Positions 6,199-13,314 are shown, counted from the stretch's first letter. The stretch: DNA of 64,000 nucleotides from an uncultured bacterium (GCA_963848965.1 CAWKFG010000004.1:512001-576000), one strand, 5' to 3'. Program-made: numbers and translations. Notes: generated by a model not told the origin, from the letters alone.

Positions 6199-6809
6199 TT
6201 AGATCCTTTCAATAGAATTTGCATATAGTTTATTAAGTGGCTCTGAAGTTAAACTTTCAGCCTTGAAGCTTTATTGCCTTTACCAAAAAATCCTTCTTTC
6301 GGATTAGCTTTAGCATCACTGAAAACTTTAAACCGATAATCAAGCTTCGGCCTTGCTCAAATACACTATTGTTAGGTTGTATTGTAAGGCGATTCAACAC
6401 TTCCTGGTCAAAATCGTACTTACATTACTTAAAAAAAGCAAGGCTCATCTATTATGCGTTTTATGATGCTAGCTTTGAGATAATCTATATCTTGCAAACG
6501 GTAACGCTTAGAAATAATACCATTTCTTAAAGCATAGGCATTTTTTAATGAGTGTGAAAAAGTCGCGCAAGCCGCGCGATAATCATATGGCCTATCTATT
6601 TTTACTATTACTCTGGGCCAAATTTACAATATCCCTCAAGTGACTAATTCACCTAAAAAATCAGCATATCCTAATGAGATAGCAAAGATCTGCGTTAATT
6701 TCTGCAACCAGCGGTTGCAGTTTTATTTGTTTAGTAAAGCACTAGTGATTTACAGCCAAAAGCTATGAAAGTATTTTTGCAAATAAATTGATTCCTCTTT
6801 CTGCGCTCT

Positions 6810-6942
6810 TTAGGGCTTCCCTCCTACGCCTATTGGGCTACGGCGGTTAACCTTCGCTTGGGTTATCCATATTATTCACTACTTTAAACCAATCACTTAA
6901 AGAAACTGGCCTGCCAACTGAAGCTTTAGCGAAGGTTGGCGT
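6810..6942 (-). repeat. Two-hairpin structured element copy 1 (no GIY-YIG gene attached)
   Basis: Homologous to 9488-9614 and 11839-11971 (GCCTGCCAACTGAAGC..GCGAAGGTTGGCGT; CCTACGC..GCTACGG). Confidence 0.8.
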
Positions 6943-6964
6943 TACTTAGTTAATATGTTTAGAA

Positions 6965-7150
6965 ACAACCAATTTAATGGATGCCGCTTTCTTTAACCGG
7001 CCAGGTGTAGTAAAACCGTTACTTGAACATGATGCTGATATTACTATTAAAAATGACGAAGGTAAAACAGCGTTAGATATAGCTCTAGAAAAGGGTAATA
7101 AAGAAATTGTTAAGCTTTTAGAGGATGTAATGGCTAAACAACAAAAGTAA
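6965..7150 (+). pseudogene. C-terminal fragment of an ankyrin-repeat protein
   Basis: LMDAAFFNRPGVVKPLLEHDADITIKNDEGKTALDIALEKGNKEIVKLLEDVMAKQQK*; no N-terminus. Confidence 0.7.
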
Positions 7151-7445
7151 GATAGAGGCTAGAGCTATAGCCCTTTTTTTATGCATGGTAAGTACCAGGA
7201 TCCTGTGGTTAGGAAGATTACTTGATTAGCCGAGGGGCCACAGGTATCTTAATGTAAAATCCAGAGTCCGATTTCGAATTTTACGAGAGGATATAGCAAG
7301 CGTTCCCCCTAGAGCTCCTATGTCCCTTGTGCTTTGTCTTGAATATTAAATTGGTAAAATGGTATAATAAGAGCTGAAGGTAAGAATTTTTCTTACCTTC
7401 AGCTTCCAAATTGGTAAAAGTTAAAAATTAAGTGTAGAAGTAATA

Positions 7446-7658
7446 GGATCTACAGCTTTAATGGTTGTATCAAGAAGCAATTATCCTCAAAGAGTACTAC
7501 AAATAGCAAAACTGTTACTTGATCATGGTGCTGACTCTAACATCAAAAACCGAGAAGGCTTAACAGTGTTAGATAGTGTCCAACAAAAAGGTAATCAAGA
7601 AATTATTAAACTTTTAAAAGAGGCGATAGCTAAATGGCAAAAAAGTAAAACAGGCTAG
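7446..7658 (+). pseudogene. Second ankyrin-repeat C-terminal fragment
   Basis: GSTALMVV...LLLDHGADSNIKNREGLTVLD...EIIKLLKEAIAKWQKSK. Confidence 0.65.
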
Positions 7659-7836
7659 GATTATAAACCTTATTACCTTGATTATATTCTGATTATTATG
7701 CCCGGCAAGTGATGCTGATAAAAAGGTGGTGATTACCGTAATTTATGATATTAATTATCAGAATTTGCACATCATTAAAGGATAGGAAGTTTTTGCTTCT
7801 CCTTGGGATCTTAGTAGGAAGAATCCTTGAGGATAT

Positions 7837-8745
7837 TTAGCTCTTGCTTTGTTGCTGTTTAACCATTGCATCTTGCAGTATTTCGATCATTTCCTCATTA
7901 TGATTGTCTTGAGCTTTGCGTAATGCAGTTGTGCCAAACTTGTTTTTGATATTAGGATTAGCTCCATGCTCAAGAAGTAACTTTACTATATCAGTATGAT
8001 TATATAGTGCTGCATTTATTAAGGCAGTCCATCCTTCACTACTTTGAGCATTGACGTCAGCTCCATGCTCAAGCAAAAGTCTTACAATTTCTAAATTTCC
8101 CTGTAGTGCGGCCTCCATTAAAGCAGTCGTGCCATACATATTTTGAGCATTAACATTAGCTCCATGTTCAAGTAAATATTGAGCTGCCTCTAAGGAAGAT
8201 CCTAAAGTTGCTTTTATAAGAGGAGTGTTTAAGTAAACCCCTCTAATATTAGGGTTAACATGTTGAGCTATAAGTTGTTTTATTGCATTCATATTTCCTT
8301 CACGTACAGCCTCCAAAAGTTGTAACTGTTGAGGCCACACTTCCTTAAGCCAACGTTCTGCACCTTCAACGCTCTCCTTTTTAAGAGCTTCAGCAATCTC
8401 ATTTGGAGCTACCTTGAACTTTATGGCTAAAGCGTAAATAATCGGTTCAAGAGATTTTAAATCTTTAAAGTAACGGGCATGAATTTTTGGATCAGCAAGC
8501 ACCTTTAGCTTTTTAATTGCTTCTTTAAGGTCCTTAGATGATTCTATTGCTTGACGTATTCCAATAAAATGCTGTAGTTCATTGATAAGTTCTCTTGGTA
8601 AAGTACTTAGATAAGAGCTTTGCTCTTTCCTTAACTGTTCAAGTACATACTCTTGTTCTTCCTGCATTGGTTCAATGATTTGCTTCATTCCAAAGCTAAG
8701 GCTAGGTAGAACTAAAAGTATTAATATCAGATATTTCCAAATCAT
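7837..8745 (-). CDS. Secreted ankyrin-repeat protein with F-box-like motif
   Basis: Signal peptide; YLSTLPRELINEL; several GxTAL..A...G...IV.LLLEHGA repeats. Confidence 0.88.
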   Translation of the reverse strand: MIWKYLILILLVLPSLSFGMKQIIEPMQEEQEYVLEQLRKEQSSYLSTLPRELINELQHFIGIRQAIESSKDLKEAIKKLKVLADPKIHARYFKDLKSLEPIIYALAIKFKVAPNEIAEALKKESVEGAERWLKEVWPQQLQLLEAVREGNMNAIKQLIAQHVNPNIRGVYLNTPLIKATLGSSLEAAQYLLEHGANVNAQNMYGTTALMEAALQGNLEIVRLLLEHGADVNAQSSEGWTALINAALYNHTDIVKLLLEHGANPNIKNKFGTTALRKAQDNHNEEMIEILQDAMVKQQQSKS

Positions 8746-8937
8746 ACTATCTTCCTATACAATAAATTTTACTTATTAATTACCCTTAGTATAATCAATA
8801 AAGGTAAAATAAATCAATAAGTAATAAATTAGAATCAGGATAATGGCATTAAAAATTTTGCCTTTAAGCATTTTTGTTGGCTTAGCCAAAAAATAGATAA
8901 AAGAAATTTGGCGAAGCTTTTAAAAAAAGCATGCTAC

Positions 8938-9177
8938 TTAAAAAGCAATTCGCTTTAATAATTCTTCTGCTATTTTTATATCTTGAACATTCCTTTGATA
9001 ACCTACATGTCGCTTATCTCTTTCCATTTCTTGTCGCATATAAGAGATCTTAAATAGCATAATCTCAAAAAGATAGGCAGAATCCCAATCTTCATCTTTC
9101 CATAACACTGGAAACCAGGCAATAAATCTTTTTATTCTTCTATATCCATTGCGAAAGTAGTATGATGGAAATCCCAT
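8938..9177 (-). CDS. Small hypothetical, possibly phage-derived and truncated
   Basis: 79 aa, GGAG RBS; WFPVLWKDEDWD motif reminiscent of phage hypotheticals (inference). Confidence 0.55.
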   Translation of the reverse strand: MGFPSYYFRNGYRRIKRFIAWFPVLWKDEDWDSAYLFEIMLFKISYMRQEMERDKRHVGYQRNVQDIKIAEELLKRIAF

Positions 9178-9230
9178 GAATTTTAATCTCCATTTTTATA
9201 GCGTTTAATAAGACAAAAGAAACGTTTAAG

Positions 9231-9473
9231 TTACCATAAACGTTTCTTTGCAAATGCTCTACCTGAATGTGACTTTAAGTATTTTTCAAATTCTAAAGCC
9301 TTTTGTTGATCCCTAAACGCAATGTAGAATATTAACTCCCACGGTCTATCATCACTTGTATAAACGGATCCACCGGAATTATGAGTTTCTAATCTTTGTT
9401 TCAAATTAATGGTATAACCAATGTAAATTTTATCACTAGACTTTTTTGATTGGATTAAATAGACGTAGTACAT
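9231..9473 (-). CDS. Minimal GIY-YIG nuclease
   Basis: YYVYLI...IYIGYT...RLETHNSG...EKYLKS. Confidence 0.92.
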   Translation of the reverse strand: MYYVYLIQSKKSSDKIYIGYTINLKQRLETHNSGGSVYTSDDRPWELIFYIAFRDQQKALEFEKYLKSHSGRAFAKKRLW

Positions 9474-9487
9474 TATAGTATATTTGA

Positions 9488-9614
9488 TTAGGGCCGGTCC
9501 GTCTACGCTTATAGCTTCGCCGGACAGTCTTCGCTTTCGCTCTCAATATCAAATTATTATAATTTCCTTTTACTGGCCTGCCAGGCGTAGCTCCGAAGGA
9601 GCGAAGACTGGCGT
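9488..9614 (-). repeat. Two-hairpin structured element copy 2, directly upstream of a GIY-YIG gene
   Basis: GTCCG..CGGAC and GCCAG..CTGGC hairpins; compensatory changes relative to copies 1 and 3. Confidence 0.8.
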
Positions 9615-9859
9615 TACTTAGTTGATATGTTTAGGAACGATCGAGTAGAGATTGAAATTAGTCTTCAAAGTATCCAGACAGCTTTTTCAATGTTGAAAAT
9701 TCAGCTTAGTTAAAAAAACTTACGCTTAAACAAGGACTACTCCCTTCGCTTTTAATAAAACGCGTAAGTGTAACCATCTTGGTAATTATATCTTTAATTT
9801 AGCAGTATCTTAGTATCGGCAAACTAAGTACCATTTCTAAGAAGTTTTACCATAACCTG

Positions 9860-10021
9860 AACCCCGAAAACAACCCCGAAATTCTACTCTCTAAAAATTT
9901 CGGGGTTAATTTTAAGTGTAGATCATAATATTCAATCAAACTCCCGATGAATCGATTATAGGCTAATTTTAAGAGGGTACTTTTGAAATAAATATAGAAA
10001 AAAATATTTAGAACCCCGAAA
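9860..10021. repeat. Four copies of AACCCCGAAA (three direct, one inverted)
   Basis: 9860-9869, 9872-9881, inverted 9898-9907, 10012-10021. Confidence 0.75.
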
Positions 10022-10036
10022 AATTTCCCTTAATAT

Positions 10037-11413
10037 TTAGTTATTTTTGATTAAGGTAAGTAAAGATTGGGGTAGTTTAAAAGTTTTATAAGGATCAAAA
10101 GCAGATGTTGCTAATTCAACCAATAATCCTTCATCTACCATTTGCTTTAAGCGTTTTGTTGCAGTTCTATCACTTACTTCCCATAAATCTTGAGCCTGCT
10201 TTGGTGAGATTTCAACATGCTCTTTCAAAAACTCAATAATAGGTAACTGCCAGCTTTCTCTCGGTAATAATTGACGTGGAGCATTATAAAGAGTTGCTCT
10301 AAAAAAAGTGCCTCTTTCCTCGAATTTTGGAGGTTGCACGCCTTGTTGCTTAGATATCTGTATCATTCTTCCCAACCCAGATCCCCAACGCTCAATAAGA
10401 TCAAGTTCTCTAAATACGTTACCGATAACTTTATTTCTAAGTAAGGATATACCATTAAGCGCATCATCTAAAGTTAGCCCCAGTGGCAACGCCCCAGGAT
10501 TAGTAACTTCAATTCTATCATCAAATATAGCAACGGTAATCGAAGCTCCTTGAATTGAATAATCTGTATGAAGGAGAGCATTAATTATTGCTTCTCGAAC
10601 CACTTGTGTATTGTATTCAGGGATATCTATTCTTCTCATTTCACCAAATTTGGCAGCGGTAGAAGTATGCCTTTTTATAAAATCAACTATAGGATCCAGT
10701 GCTATAGAAATAGGGATTTCTAAGTCTTTATGGTCAAGGATTTCAGCTTTGGTTAGACCAATAAATCTACCCAACCGAATCATTGCGTCAGGAAAAAATT
10801 CTTTAGGGTTTCGTCCAAAGAGTAGAACTGCAGCGTTTGAAGGAAAAGGCTTGCCTTGATACTTCACGATCAAATCTAATGATTGGGCTGTTTGCTCTGA
10901 AAAACTTTTATGGACTTTTTCAAATAATTGTTTTGCTAAATCGAATTGAATACGATCAAGTGGGCATTCAGCATTGGGCTGTCCATCAAAAAATCTACGC
11001 TGCTTTGATTGTCTAATTTCTTCAATCATATGCAAATCTGCAGGTCTGTTGGTTGAACCTAACCGCATAAAAGTACTATGTTCAATTCCCTTCGCTTTTA
11101 GATAATAAGGACCAAAACTGTGATCTACAACAATAATAAGAACATCACGCTTTCGCCATGTATATCTATGGAAAGTAGGAATCAATAAAGGCTCTATAGA
11201 TTCTGCGACTGCATTTGCAATTTTTTCTTCATCTTTTTGTATATCTTGCAAACCTATTACTTCTTTGGTTTTATCTTGAACGCCTACAATAAGTGTCCCA
11301 CCTGCAGTATTTGCAAAGGCTATTATAGTTTGAATAATCTTTTGAAGCGATAAGGTATTTTCTTTAAACTCAAGAGTTTTGCCTTCGTCTCTGACTAATA
11401 ATTCTTCAAGCAT
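10037..11413 (-). CDS. AlbA_2 (Schlafen-like) + HATPase_c_4 + wHTH protein (often annotated RecG C-terminal domain or transcriptional regulator)
   Basis: EGKTLEFKE, AFANTAGGTLIVGV, REAIINALLHTDY, IEVTNPG, IERWGSG; start at MLEELL after AGGAAGG. Confidence 0.88.
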   Translation of the reverse strand: MLEELLVRDEGKTLEFKENTLSLQKIIQTIIAFANTAGGTLIVGVQDKTKEVIGLQDIQKDEEKIANAVAESIEPLLIPTFHRYTWRKRDVLIIVVDHSFGPYYLKAKGIEHSTFMRLGSTNRPADLHMIEEIRQSKQRRFFDGQPNAECPLDRIQFDLAKQLFEKVHKSFSEQTAQSLDLIVKYQGKPFPSNAAVLLFGRNPKEFFPDAMIRLGRFIGLTKAEILDHKDLEIPISIALDPIVDFIKRHTSTAAKFGEMRRIDIPEYNTQVVREAIINALLHTDYSIQGASITVAIFDDRIEVTNPGALPLGLTLDDALNGISLLRNKVIGNVFRELDLIERWGSGLGRMIQISKQQGVQPPKFEERGTFFRATLYNAPRQLLPRESWQLPIIEFLKEHVEISPKQAQDLWEVSDRTATKRLKQMVDEGLLVELATSAFDPYKTFKLPQSLLTLIKNN

Positions 11414-11570
11414 TGTAACCTTCCTAATGTTTTTAAAAAAATAACTTAGAAAGCTAAGAACGTCAAAGACTTGCAATACCATAAGTGGTGGTTTCGATTT
11501 CTTTTAATTTCTGCCACCGCTGGTGGCAGTTTTTCTTTACCCTTTGAAAATCGCATATTCCCAGCAAAAA

Positions 11571-11813
11571 CTACCATAATCGTTTCTTTGCGAATGCTCT
11601 ACCTGAGCCAGACTTTAAATATTTTTCAAAGCTAATTGCAGCAGCTCTCTCTTTAAAAGCAATACATGTTATTAGTTCCCAAGGCTTGAATGATGAAGTA
11701 TGCACTGAACCACCAGAATTATGCGTTTGAAGTCGCTCATTGACATTATCTGTGTAGCCTATGTATGTTTGATCTGGATTATTTATTGATTTGATAAGGT
11801 ATACGTAATACAT
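11571..11813 (-). CDS. Minimal GIY-YIG nuclease (paralog of 9231-9473)
   Basis: YYVYLI...TYIGYT...RLQTHNSG...EKYLKSGSGRAFAKKRLW. Confidence 0.92.
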   Translation of the reverse strand: MYYVYLIKSINNPDQTYIGYTDNVNERLQTHNSGGSVHTSSFKPWELITCIAFKERAAAISFEKYLKSGSGRAFAKKRLW

Positions 11814-11838
11814 AATACCTCACTATTGATTAACATTC

Positions 11839-11971
11839 TAGGGACGGTCCTCCTTCGCTCTTTAGGGCTACGGCGGACAACCTTCGCTTAGGCTATAAAT
11901 ATCACCCCTTATTTTAAATCAATCCTTTAAAGAAATGGTCTGCCAACCGAAGCTTCAGCAAAGGTTGGCGT
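11839..11971 (-). repeat. Two-hairpin structured element copy 3, overlapping the tRNA-Glu 3' end
   Basis: First hairpin begins with the tRNA's GCCA; lies between the tRNA and the GIY-YIG gene. Confidence 0.82.
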
Positions 11972-12043
11972 CCCTAAGGGGATTCGAACCCCTGTTTTCG
12001 CCGTGAAAGGGCGATGTCCTAGACCAGGCTAGACGATAGGGAC
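11966..12043 (-). tRNA. tRNA-Glu (TTC)
   Basis: Cloverleaf GTCCCTA...TCGCC-CTTTCAC-GGCGA...GGTTCGAATCC...TAGGGACGCCA. Confidence 0.96.
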
Positions 12044-12079: not shown

Positions 12080-12155
12080 TGGTGAGCCGCGTTGGATTCG
12101 AACCAACGACCCACAGCTTAAAAGGCTGTTGCTCTACCACCTGAGCTAGCGGCTC
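12080..12155 (-). tRNA. tRNA-Lys (TTT)
   Basis: GAGCCGC...CAGC-CTTTTAA-GCTG...GGTTCGAATCC...GCGGCTCACCA. Confidence 0.96.
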
Positions 12156-12555: not shown

Positions 12556-13314
12556 ATGAAAACCTTATATTCTCTCTTTATCGGAGTTTCCTTCTTTAGT
12601 ACTAGCTTTGCTATGCAACCTTCTTATTTACAGCTTTTACCTACAGATATAGCAACTGAACAACTTACTCGTCTTATAACTGCTGCACCGACACGTGAGG
12701 AAGCAATAAATCAAATAAACACATTAAGTAAAGTTCCAAAGTTTAGCGCAAGTCCCTTGTTTAATGATGCAAAAGGTACTGCTCTGCTTCTTGATGTTCT
12801 CTATACACGGTTTCACCTACCTCAAGGGCCGATAATAAGGCCAGAAGAACTAGCTGCAAGAATTACTACTCCAGGAGCTCAAGAATGGTTAACAAAGATA
12901 CGGCCTCAAGAAGAAGAACTTTTCAAAGCAGTTCAAGCAGAAGATTTATCTAAAGTAAAGAAGCTTCTTGCACAAGGGGTTAATCCAAGTGCTCGACAAG
13001 ATGTCCTGTATAGAACTGCTCTTATGAATGCTATCAACAGGAACTATTTAGATATAGCCCAAGAACTACTCAATAAAGGAGCAGACGTTAATGCTCAAGA
13101 TATTAAAGGAGAAACTGCATTAATGCGTGCTATTAATAGCGGTAATGCTTCAGCAACAAAATTACTTCTTGACAAAGGAGCTAACCCACATATACGGGAT
13201 TACAACAAGAAAACTGCACTTGACCACATTCAAAATATTCTGCCTGTAATTCCTGATTATAATCCTGAAGTAATTAAAGCAATTCAAGAAGCAGAAAAAC
13301 GTACATCAAAATAA
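12556..13314 (+). CDS. Secreted ankyrin-repeat protein (same family as 7837-8745)
   Basis: Signal peptide ending SFA-MQP; YLQLLPTDI; ankyrin repeats RTALMNA, ETALMRA. Confidence 0.88.
   Translation: MKTLYSLFIGVSFFSTSFAMQPSYLQLLPTDIATEQLTRLITAAPTREEAINQINTLSKVPKFSASPLFNDAKGTALLLDVLYTRFHLPQGPIIRPEELAARITTPGAQEWLTKIRPQEEELFKAVQAEDLSKVKKLLAQGVNPSARQDVLYRTALMNAINRNYLDIAQELLNKGADVNAQDIKGETALMRAINSGNASATKLLLDKGANPHIRDYNKKTALDHIQNILPVIPDYNPEVIKAIQEAEKRTSK

Follow-up and report, generated by a model that had tools for sequence, protein, structure and literature searches.

The window, a 64,000-nucleotide stretch of DNA from an uncultured bacterium (GCA_963848965.1 CAWKFG010000004.1:512001-576000), contains three copies of a small cassette built from a two-hairpin module and, in two of the copies, a gene for an 80-residue GIY-YIG nuclease. 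Relatives of this nuclease occur in many phyla, mostly just behind tRNA or tmRNA genes. With slightly better than even confidence, we read the cassette as selfish DNA in which a single-strand nuclease similar to the Ssn enzymes, aimed at the ends of tRNA genes, serves a hairpin doublet like that of REPINs. In the literature searched, we found no description of a hairpin-nuclease cassette behind tRNA genes.

Anatomy of the module and its copies

The three modules lie on the minus strand (6810-6942, 9488-9614 and 11839-11971; Table 1), and the sequence bears out the original prediction that they are copies of about 130 bp with oppositely oriented hairpins. Each module runs from hairpin A through a spacer and a 10-bp long-range inverted repeat to hairpin B. 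Hairpin A follows a regular plan of CCA, a variable triplet, TTYGC, the loop, GCTTC, the complement of the triplet, and TGG. The copies are linked by repeat families D3, D5, D7 and D8, and copy 1 matches copy 3 at 80.6% over 124 nt (BLASTN, E 2.8e-25). The long-range pairing is present, with both sides altered between copies (CAACCTTCGC/GCGAAGGTTG versus CAGTCTTCGC/GCGAAGACTG).

The more specific details of the prediction were also found in the sequence. In copy 3, the first bases of hairpin A (11943-11968) are the CCA belonging to tRNA-Glu, and the distal segment TAGGGACG (11839-11846) repeats CGTCCCTA (11969-11976) perfectly in inverted form. Distal segments are retained by copy 2 (TTAGGGCCG, 8/9) and by copy 1 (TTAGGG). 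Copies 2 and 3 are followed by homologous 80-aa GIY-YIG genes. Copy 1 lost its gene through deletion of most of the ORF; the decayed final ~30 nt of the ORF and a downstream hairpin (6702-6720, matching 11511-11529) remain. The left flank of copies 1 and 2 was also common to two cassettes on another contig. Promoter-like sites on the minus strand (12233-12205 and 12220-12192) lie upstream of tRNA-Lys. Co-transcription of the nuclease gene with the tRNA is a plausible prediction, because no terminator-like site was found between tRNA-Glu and the gene.

Table 1. Positions of the cassette features and neighbouring tRNA genes in the window
Feature	Position	Strand	Remarks
tRNA-Lys(ttt)	12080..12155	-	ARAGORN; Rfam tRNA 71 bits; first of the two tRNA genes preceding cassette 3
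tRNA-Glu(ttc)	11966..12043	-	encoded CCA 11966-11968 = first three bases of hairpin A
Copy 3 hairpin A	11943..11968	-	model R1 match, 36.6 bits; sequence
Copy 3 S3 (GCGAAGGTTG)	11878..11887	-	10-nt inverted repeat of the module's CA + triplet + TTYGC start
Copy 3 hairpin B	11847..11878	-	purine-loop mirror of hairpin A; R1 match 11849-11876, opposite strand
Copy 3 distal 8-mer	11839..11846	-	complement of the tRNA-Glu acceptor 3' strand; lineage-specific
Cassette 3 80-aa GIY-YIG gene	11571..11813	-	
Hairpin, right edge of cassette homology	11504..11533	.	repeated at 6695-6724 (D10); terminator score on plus strand only
Copy 2 module	9488..9611	-	hairpin A 9581-9611, S3 9525-9534, hairpin B 9497-9525, distal TTAGGGCCG 9488-9496
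Cassette 2 80-aa GIY-YIG gene	9231..9473	-	stop codon overlapped by terminator-like hairpin 9249-9216
Copy 1 module	6810..6939	-	hairpin A 6914-6939, S3 6848-6857, hairpin B decayed, distal TTAGGG 6810-6815
Cassette 1 remnant	6695..6809	-	decayed ORF 3' end + downstream hairpin; ~215 nt of ORF deleted (alignment; D10)
Conserved left flank, ~45 nt	9612..9700	.	ends ..AAGTAACG before CCA; copy 1 equivalent 6940-6995

The 80-residue nuclease

The ORFs at 9231-9473 and 11571-11813 encode GIY-YIG proteins (Pfam E 1.8e-18 and 1.1e-15), with PF01541 domain scores of 67.1 and 58.1 bits (curated cut-off 22.6), and are 68% identical to each other. The domain spans residues 1-72, so that the protein is the nuclease domain alone. 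Among 21 sequences, 26 of the 80 columns were invariant, which points to strong constraint on the protein. The invariant residues include Y3, Y5, Y17, G19, R27, H31, N32 and E63, and we take the Tyr pair, Arg, His/Asn and Glu to have the catalytic roles of the GIY-YIG family. The conserved core residues aligned with Slx1 chains (E 1.2e-6). Across phyla, the nucleases retained 52-69% identity, and their tree required at least 29 changes of the neighbouring RNA gene and at least 15 changes of phylum, which we read as signs of transfer. The search against defence families gave no convincing match, the best being a PADLOC hit with E 3.6e-4 over ~30 residues.

Association with tRNA and tmRNA 3' ends

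In 62 of the 80 loci with nuclease relatives, from many phyla, a tRNA or tmRNA gene on the same strand ended less than 450 nt upstream. The tRNA neighbours comprised 13 isotypes, besides tmRNA. Wherever the anchors were readable, hairpin A started at the base after CCA. The remaining 18 loci showed ..CCA before hairpin A in 13 cases, two of which also had a TpsiC arm and GCCTCCACCA. The pairing of CCA with the TGG of hairpin A was the only near-universal one that involved the tRNA.

The comparison of empty and filled sites in relatives, which had been proposed as a check, gave a clear junction. Among 30 tRNA-Glu sites, 10 were filled and 17 were empty; the junction at the filled sites lay directly after CCA, while unrelated AT-rich sequence followed CCA at the empty ones. 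These sites and the 62 loci support the predicted small element, selfish or mobile, with a link to tRNA 3' ends. The element was patchy, with a strong nuclease match in 24 of 41 relatives, and broken copies also occurred. The order tRNA-Lys, tRNA-Glu, module and gene was widespread in Dependentiae.

The hairpins outnumbered the genes. Model R1 had 19 matches in the source genome, where 7 of the 34 tRNA and tmRNA genes carried one, gene-less; in relatives there were up to 40 hairpins per genome versus at most 7 GIY-YIG matches. When 40 hairpin matches were sampled, 23 stood exactly at tRNA 3' ends and 2 at tmRNA-type ends, and 15 lay away from both. As expected from the predicted association, hairpins and the gene went together, with hairpins in 23 of 24 nuclease-encoding genomes versus 4 of 17 that lacked the gene, a contrast that relatedness among the genomes overstates.

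Covariation and pairing

The three bases after CCA vary, and they covary with two downstream segments. S2 contained the exact complement of the triplet in 45 of 52 loci, as did S3 in 33 of the 37 anchored loci. When labels were permuted in 1000 trials, the mean counts were 10.9 (S2) and 7.3 (S3) and the maxima 20 and 14. This agrees with the predicted covariation of the long-range pairing. Within hairpin A, 97.1% of the cells paired, and the covariation score of 0.263, compared with 0.083 for shuffled data, was reached by none of 500 shuffles. The pairs were overwhelmingly Watson-Crick, both for S1:S3 (354 of 370, with 4 G-T and 3 A-C) and for S1:S2 (302 of 312, with 1 G-T and 2 A-C).

The two hairpin forms also differed in location. 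The peak for pyrimidine-loop hairpins lay 100-200 nt before the gene (50 motif matches) and that for purine-loop hairpins in the last 0-100 nt (62 motif matches); few matches fell downstream of the nuclease gene. Folded as free RNA, copies 1 and 2 did not outperform shuffled sequences (z -0.8 and -0.95), whereas copy 3 did (z -2.7), owing to its outer helix of 8-9 bp. The module matched no Rfam family in the window or in 20 loci of other phyla, where only tRNA and tmRNA reached threshold.

Comparison with known systems

Nucleases of the Ssn family consist of a single GIY-YIG domain and cleave DNA beside their own hairpin repeats only when it is single-stranded, and the authors who described them remark on the IS-like look of the gene with its repeats (Chenal et al. 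2025, PMC11893778). The cassette nuclease resembles them in its single domain and size (80-100 aa), and both genes adjoin short GC-rich hairpin repeats with many gene-less copies. In contrast to the Ssn repeats, the cassette stems carry GAA/GAA or TTC/TTC internal loops, and the hairpins stand upstream of the gene only, not on both sides. The published SRM pattern, which the resolved NTS consensus does match, was found within 400 nt of the gene in 1 of 80 loci, which is chance level (0-2 in 20 shuffled sets). Supplementary Data 4 of the Ssn paper gives Aquisalinus luteolus a cd10448 homologue by PSI-BLAST, in a row with negative entries for tBLASTN (SsnA as query) and for a CDD score above 100, possibly for a different assembly from the one analysed here (PMC11893778). 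The GIY-YIG domains that we found in this species were only those of the cassette family and a 661-residue open frame, taken as UvrC by its length. The word tRNA is absent from the main text of the Ssn paper (PMC11893778), and anchoring at a CCA end is therefore not described there.

The REP/BIME/REPIN elements that RAYT transposases mobilise, and the IS200/IS605 group, resemble the cassette: their imperfect palindromes form inverted doublets, gene-less copies are numerous, one or a few enzyme genes lie beside a doublet, and insertion takes place next to a short fixed sequence (PMC11893778). The enzymes are different: RAYT is an HUH Y1 tyrosine transposase, whereas the cassette gene encodes a GIY-YIG protein. 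The target of the cassette, the 3' end of tRNA and tmRNA genes, also sets it apart. Integrase-borne islands land at this same end and leave the gene intact, as the cassette does. However, there is no integrase in the homology region of the cassette, which measures only ~0.45 kb. A direct repeat of the tRNA end was likewise missing beyond the cassette, since in the 600 nt that follow the gene none of 59 loci reached 12/14 matches, and the window contained no second copy.

SegB of phage T4 has an added DNA-binding part, whereas the cassette protein, at 80 aa, has no separate DNA-binding domain. In both cases, a GIY-YIG gene sits among tRNA genes. SegB is a free-standing homing enzyme whose site includes a conserved TpsiC stem-loop motif, and its gene spreads together with its flanks (PMC2330249). 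It differs from the cassette nuclease as a phage protein that cuts double-stranded DNA and has no hairpin module (PMC2330249).

Alternative readings

The original prediction also assigned a role to the distal 8-mer, which as an RNA or single-stranded DNA guide would pair with the acceptor 3' strand and would change with the adjacent tRNA. Its selfish element at tRNA ends, gene association and covariation held, but the 8-mer did not prove to be a recognition device as a general rule. The perfect 8-nt complement in copy 3, the better-than-shuffled folding of that copy with its outer helix, the 7/8 and 6/8 complements in six of 14 tRNA-Glu(ttc) loci of the 80-locus set, and the 8/9 complement in one relative (L095) would all fit a guide. 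However, the closest complement to the tRNA at the same locus averaged 5.2/8 over 62 loci, independent of tRNA identity, and reached 7/8 in only three of them, two with tRNA-Glu in Dependentiae and one with tRNA-Ser. For most non-Glu tRNAs and tmRNA, nearly all of them, unrelated tRNA ends matched equally well. The copies in the source genome all keep a tRNA-Glu-type 8-mer regardless of their current left neighbour, even where they no longer abut tRNA-Glu, and at many tRNA ends a gene-less hairpin A stands without any distal segment. Recurrence of the complement is confined to some tRNA-Glu copies within Dependentiae, with no adjustment to tRNA identity in other settings, and we regard a guide as highly improbable.

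The module could instead work as RNA, being at once the 3' trailer of the tRNA and the 5' leader of the nuclease mRNA, and act as a switch or processing site that sets nuclease expression. Such a device would separate the tRNA from the mRNA, and its four-segment X X' X X' layout permits two mutually exclusive folds (S1:S2 with S2b:S3, or S1:S3 with S2:S2b). Its constant place between tRNA and gene in the transcribed orientation, hairpin B and GAGG just before the ATG, the promoter-like sites upstream of tRNA-Lys and the terminator-free interval from tRNA-Glu to the ORF are consistent with this. We nonetheless consider it unlikely. G-U pairs are not in excess over A-C pairs (5 vs 5 among 682), copies 1 and 2 do not surpass shuffled sequences in folding, no Rfam family was found in the loci searched, and the 15 sampled hairpins away from tRNA and tmRNA ends do not suit a trailer. 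Mirror hairpins on opposite strands are unneeded for a single-stranded RNA function; these, with Watson-Crick helices free of a G-T excess, are therefore read as DNA. The perfect stems could also reflect young copies, not selection at the DNA level, and the RNA and DNA readings are compatible, so that both can hold. A domesticated host function, such as has been proposed for Neisseria SsnA, seems still less probable, and quite doubtful overall, whether in modulating recombination or DNA uptake, protecting or terminating tRNA operons, or defence. SsnA does affect natural transformation (PMC11893778), the cassette protein is strongly constrained, and many genera within a genome-reduced lineage retain the copy linked to tRNA-Glu; the widespread Dependentiae order could stem from prolonged vertical inheritance of a cassette with a host function. 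Against this stand the patchy distribution, the broken copies, the empty majority of tRNA-Glu sites and the unconvincing defence matches.

Proposed mechanism

The data establish the anatomy of the cassette, its junction, the covariation, the association with the gene and with tRNA ends, the patchy distribution and the decay of copies; single-strand binding and cutting, the landmark and the copy-in step are inferred. The chance-level SRM matches and the one-sided position of the hairpins go against this reading. Homology among cassette copies also fades ~65 nt past the stop codon, with no defined right end, and given this and the missing copy of the tRNA end any transposition or homing mechanism is hypothetical. 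The ~130-bp doublet of two inverted imperfect hairpins would be served by the adjacent single-domain nuclease. By analogy with Ssn on NTS/SRM hairpins, the enzyme may bind, and cut beside, the purine-loop form (CCGAAGC..GCGAAGG) in single-stranded DNA. Hairpin A has this form on the bottom strand, hairpin B on the top strand. The likely landmark would be the 3' architecture shared by tRNA and tmRNA, namely the TpsiC arm, the 7-nt acceptor strand and NCCA, which could be exposed as a single strand in these heavily transcribed genes. The unit would land directly after CCA, where its TGG and triplet complement would pair with CCA and the first bases of the element, so that hairpin A has the CCA of the tRNA as its foot. 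After insertion, the nuclease gene would probably be read through from the tRNA promoter, and hairpins lacking a gene may go on to reach further tRNA ends in trans.

Organization of the cassettes

The coordinates and motifs of the original prediction were all confirmed in the sequence. All three modules (copies 1 to 3) lie on the minus strand, and copies 2 and 3 form cassettes, each a module with an 80-aa GIY-YIG gene. The first three bases of the copy 3 module are the CCA of tRNA-Glu itself. Within the module, hairpin A is directly followed by a CAGRCCA segment and then an AT-rich spacer. On the plus strand hairpin A has the layout CC-GAA-GC .. GC-RAA-GG, which hairpin B has on the minus strand; since the two share one layout on opposite strands, the module is a doublet of inverted palindromes. 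The proteins of cassettes 2 and 3 showed 68% identity. Copy 1 keeps the hairpin found after the gene in cassette 3 (6702-6720 matches 11511-11529), and this hairpin and the decayed ORF end beside the module indicate that it is a deletion derivative.

Positions of the tRNA genes, modules and nuclease genes in the window
Feature	Position	Strand	Description
tRNA-Lys(ttt)	12155-12080	minus	first of the tRNA pair upstream of cassette 3
tRNA-Glu(ttc)	12043-11966	minus	followed without a gap by the ~130-nt module
Copy 3 hairpin A	11968-11943	minus	CCA, variable triplet, TTYGC, small loop, GCTTC, triplet complement, TGG
Copy 3 S3	11887-11878	minus	10-nt inverted repeat, perfect or near-perfect, of the CA + triplet + TTYGC start
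Copy 3 hairpin B	11878-11847	minus	fourth part of the module
Cassette 3 GIY-YIG ORF	11813-11571	minus	80 aa; begins 33 nt beyond hairpin B
Copy 2 module	9611-9488	minus	same parts as copy 3
Cassette 2 GIY-YIG gene	9473-9231	minus	copy 2's own nuclease gene
Copy 1 module	6939-6810	minus	only the decayed last ~30 nt of the ORF

The gene directly downstream of cassette 3 (10037-11482, minus strand) encodes a 481-aa Schlafen/AlbA_2 and HATPase_c_4 protein, which PADLOC matched to pAgo-associated and Aga-type modules (E 2.7e-16 and 7.6e-14). It is possibly a defence-type gene parked behind the tRNA-end cassette. Between this gene and cassette 2, four copies of the AACCCCGAAA motif occur in both orientations at 9853-10030 (inverted repeats I15 and I25). 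A 79-aa ORF directly downstream of the cassette 2 nuclease gene (8938-9177, minus strand) had no match in Pfam, PADLOC or PHROGs. Two short ankyrin-repeat ORFs between copies 1 and 2 (6977-7150 and 7461-7658, plus strand; 71% alike over 171 nt, repeat D1) look like fragments of a broken ankyrin gene; the ankyrin genes at 7837-8745 and 12556-13314 are intact. The 5 kb that follow tRNA-Glu have the look of a hot spot for rearrangement.

The whole assembly comprises 1.73 Mb in 5 contigs with 37% G+C, and its closest named proteins and contigs are from Babeliales. It holds four GIY-YIG genes of the cassette type, all preceded by a full module; two of them are in the window and the remaining two lie on another contig. 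Three near-identical cassettes share their sequence from ACGCCA on the left to ~65 nt beyond the stop codon. Copies without a tRNA on their left still have a flank ending in ..ACGCCA, the tRNA-Glu end. A covariance model trained on 49 hairpin A sequences (R1) matched 19 places in the genome at E up to 10. Among these are a related hairpin directly after the tmRNA CCA and hairpins at the 3' ends of tRNA-Lys(ctt), Glu, Asp, Leu(taa), Ala(ggc) and Ser(gga). Overall, 7 of the 34 tRNA/tmRNA genes called by ARAGORN bear a hairpin, and these 34 are the only such sites in the 1.73 Mb. Solitary B-type hairpins (..CCTTCGC..GCTTCGGCGGACAC..) lie apart from nuclease genes, at 413401-413428 and 404106-404132 of contig C1 and 42126-42152 of contig C2; one of these lies 5 nt past the tmRNA CCA.

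Directly left of ..ACGCCA, four cassettes carry a conserved sequence of ~45 nt (6940-6995 and 9612-9700 in the window). It also occurs once without any module, outside the window at 507894-507922 of contig C4, and recurs in another genus (loci L003 and L015). A decayed tRNA was ruled out as the left flank of copies 1 and 2, where ARAGORN called none and no convincing TpsiC arm was seen. The frames in the flank read as a divergent micro-ORF (MFRN..) or as a gene tail (..VPKHIN-stop); read as a gene C-terminus or as a divergent gene N-terminus, the flank gives open frames of only 13-40 codons. The flank is a separate 45-nt repeat.

Distribution and mobility

The 80-aa nuclease belongs to a large family: E values of up to 1e-5 were obtained for 1308 of 1310 candidates, and 594 of 601 stretches from one-genome-per-species contigs were confirmed as members. 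Conservation was tight, with 26 of the 80 columns invariant among 21 sequences. Profiles of defence systems and phage families gave marginal partial matches only. In 62 of the 80 best loci, the start codon lay <450 nt downstream of the end of a tRNA or tmRNA gene on the same strand. These genes comprised 14 tmRNA genes and tRNAs for Glu, Asp, Ser, Gln, Val, Arg, Ala, Thr, Pro, Leu, Met, Ile and Tyr. In 13 of the remaining 18 loci ..CCA directly precedes hairpin A, two of these 13 having a TpsiC arm and GCCTCCACCA that ARAGORN missed; three of the 18 are cut by contig ends. The carriers belong to Dependentiae, Pseudomonadota (several classes), Acidobacteriota, Myxococcota, Lentisphaerota, Verrucomicrobiota, Campylobacterota, Bdellovibrionota, Thermodesulfobacteriota, Omnitrophota and Patescibacteria, and include the culturable and harmless Aquisalinus luteolus, Sneathiella sp. 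and Bdellovibrio bacteriovorus Bd16.

Some loci had unusual arrangements. On a Geobacter sp. contig (L057), about five tandem nested purine-loop hairpin units fill the 338 nt from the tmRNA CCA to the GIY-YIG gene. At two loci, L074 and L058, the tRNA gene seemingly lacks an encoded CCA, and the CCA of the hairpin falls on the last acceptor-strand bases and the discriminator. These two cases fit the view that placement follows the DNA sequence and not the end of the mature tRNA.

Presence was patchy among relatives of the genome. Among 30 tRNA-Lys/tRNA-Glu loci, 10 were filled, 17 were empty and 3 held remnants or rearranged copies. In the filled loci the gene lies directly behind tRNA-Glu and the module starts at the base after CCA. 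A strong nuclease match (E below 1e-15) was present in 24 of 41 relatives, with up to 7 matches per genome, several of them broken by stop codons. Hairpin A matches (E up to 0.01) were found in 23 of these 24 genomes versus 4 of the 17 others, reaching 40 per genome. Of 40 hairpin matches sampled from four relatives, 23 lay against the 3' end of a tRNA called by ARAGORN, with 11 isotypes in all, and a further 2 against tmRNA-type ends. The protein tree implied at least 29 changes of the neighbouring RNA gene and at least 15 of phylum; built from 80 columns without rows L066 and L073, whose translated frames are short, it is poorly resolved (47 of 77 inner branches open) and serves for minimum counts only.

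In none of 59 loci did the tRNA end recur as a direct repeat past the gene, so insertion is not of the integrase type, and no integrase-like target duplication was found in the window either. At L112, downstream of tRNA-Glu on contig C2 of genome G009, hairpin A preceded by part of a tRNA-Glu (from the anticodon arm to CCA, interrupted by an insert) forms a unit that occurs as tandem repeats; here the 3' parts of the tRNA are copied together with the hairpin. None of the public sequencing runs searched holds the window's locus, and the shares of at most 0.13 are consistent with shared conserved parts such as tRNA genes. The element is real, non-random and widespread, and the proposal of a mobile element whose nuclease targets tRNA ends stands, given the 62 of 80 loci and the filled versus empty sites.

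Pairing within the module

The module start S1 (CA, variable triplet, TTYGC) pairs with two downstream segments, S2 and S3, which we located by their fixed bases only, leaving the triplets out. The triplet after CCA took 13 different values. It was exactly complementary to the S2 triplet in 45 of 52 loci and to the S3 triplet in 33 of 37, against permuted means of 10.9 (maximum 20) and 7.3 (maximum 14) when triplets were shuffled among loci in 1000 trials. A further copy of it follows the CAGG loop in 13 of 46 loci (permuted mean 3.6, maximum 11). In alignment A4, pairing was seen in 97.1% of cells and was lost when the partners were slid, and the covariation score was 0.263 versus 0.083 in shuffles, reached by 0 of 500, although these figures overstate independence because the loci are related.

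The helices are almost purely Watson-Crick, with 354 of 370 S1:S3 pairs (G-T 4, A-C 3) and 302 of 312 S1:S2 pairs (G-T 1, A-C 2), so that G-T is not commoner than A-C. The outer stem of hairpin B gave 83 of 145 Watson-Crick pairs by a pattern that mis-registers, and no inference was drawn from it. Hairpins A and B are one motif on opposite strands with fixed polarity relative to the gene, and 15 of the 40 sampled hairpins lie away from tRNA genes. When copies 1 and 2 were folded as free RNA, neither strand did better than shuffled sequence; copy 3 alone did, with z of -2.7 and -2.6, because its outer helix pairs the tRNA acceptor strand with the distal 8-mer. The pure helices, mirrored hairpins, tRNA-free hairpins and unremarkable global folds point to a module that acts at the DNA level. 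The same features argue against a function as an RNA leader, yet the module may have such a secondary role in the transcript, as no terminator-like site lies between tRNA-Glu and the nuclease ORF and promoter-like sites lie upstream of tRNA-Lys. A known RNA family was excluded in the window, where neither the Rfam gathering threshold nor a cut-off of E up to 10 gave anything for the module; 20 other loci gave nothing for it at E up to 0.01. At L030 (975-1108), a sub-threshold match to the proteobacterial sRNA sX4 covers tRNA-Ser and hairpin A (35.6 bits, gathering score 70, E 6.7e-4). Some annotated sRNAs may be tRNA trailers of the hairpin-A type.

The distal 8-mer had been proposed to find tRNA ends by pairing with the acceptor strand. 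This did not hold across the family. When the best complement to each locus's own acceptor strand and discriminator was sought downstream of hairpin A, the mean was 5.2 of 8 over 62 loci. Only three loci reached 7 of 8: L019 and L032, both tRNA-Glu loci of Dependentiae, and the tRNA-Ser locus L051. With tmRNA and most of the other tRNAs, unrelated tRNA ends matched equally well. Every copy in the window's genome keeps the Glu-type 8-mer, whatever its left neighbour. In our reading, the lineage has specialised on tRNA-Glu and its 8-mer is the outer portion of a terminal inverted repeat. The same bases would then precede both hairpins 5' to 3' on their own strands, and an enzyme like the Ssn ssDNA nucleases would cut there.

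Comparison with known systems

The nearest published system is the Ssn family (PMC11893778), single-domain GIY-YIG proteins described as acting on single-stranded DNA only, which they bind and cut next to NTS/SRM hairpins. Such hairpins flank the ssn gene and litter the genome (PMC11893778), whereas the cassette hairpins lie on one side of the gene only, and the SRM pattern matches 1 of 80 cassette loci. The paper's table lists Aquisalinus luteolus as positive by PSI-BLAST to cd10448 and negative by tBLASTN with the Neisseria member SsnA and by CDD score (PMC11893778). The only GIY-YIG domains in this species are the cassette-type protein and a 661-residue open frame, which we take from its length to be UvrC. 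The main text of the paper nowhere mentions tRNA (PMC11893778). The tRNA-end nucleases seem at best peripheral to Ssn. A search of plasmids for a reference Ssn gave one weak match, a 100-aa GIY-YIG protein of Legionella lytica (40% identity) with no SRM adjoining, which was unsuitable as a reference.

T4 SegB is a GIY-YIG enzyme whose site includes the TpsiC motif of tRNA genes (PMC2330249), a precedent that makes the shared 3' architecture of tRNA/tmRNA genes a credible landmark. Closest in logic are REP/BIME-RAYT and IS200/IS605, yet these use HUH enzymes. Searches of the openly accessible literature found no description of GIY-YIG hairpin cassettes at tRNA/tmRNA ends.

Implications

It seems unlikely that the 80-residue GIY-YIG protein and the ~130-bp hairpin doublet are a complete, autonomous targeting-and-spreading unit guided by pairing in ssDNA. 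If they were, the element's TGG and self-complementary variable triplet would pair against the CCA end, and this pairing would be read beside the folded TpsiC/acceptor part of the gene by a structure- and pairing-guided nuclease needing neither a guide RNA nor an extra DNA-binding domain. A templated fold-back or strand-switch during insertion would have left the triplet in three or four places per element as its footprint. Such a cassette would be, to our knowledge, among the smallest mobile systems.

Integrase-borne islands classically land at tRNA and tmRNA genes. The cassette uses these sites with a unit of <0.5 kb and without an integrase, across many phyla. Its hairpins could be mistaken for terminators or small RNAs in annotation. 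Since culturable carriers exist, the mechanism is open to direct testing. If the 80-aa protein cuts ssDNA beside these hairpins, the Ssn enzymes would gain a second hairpin grammar, a defined genomic target and a plausible selfish origin. In some genomes the CCA end is buried in a hairpin at a large share of the tRNA genes, and this must affect tRNA 3' maturation.
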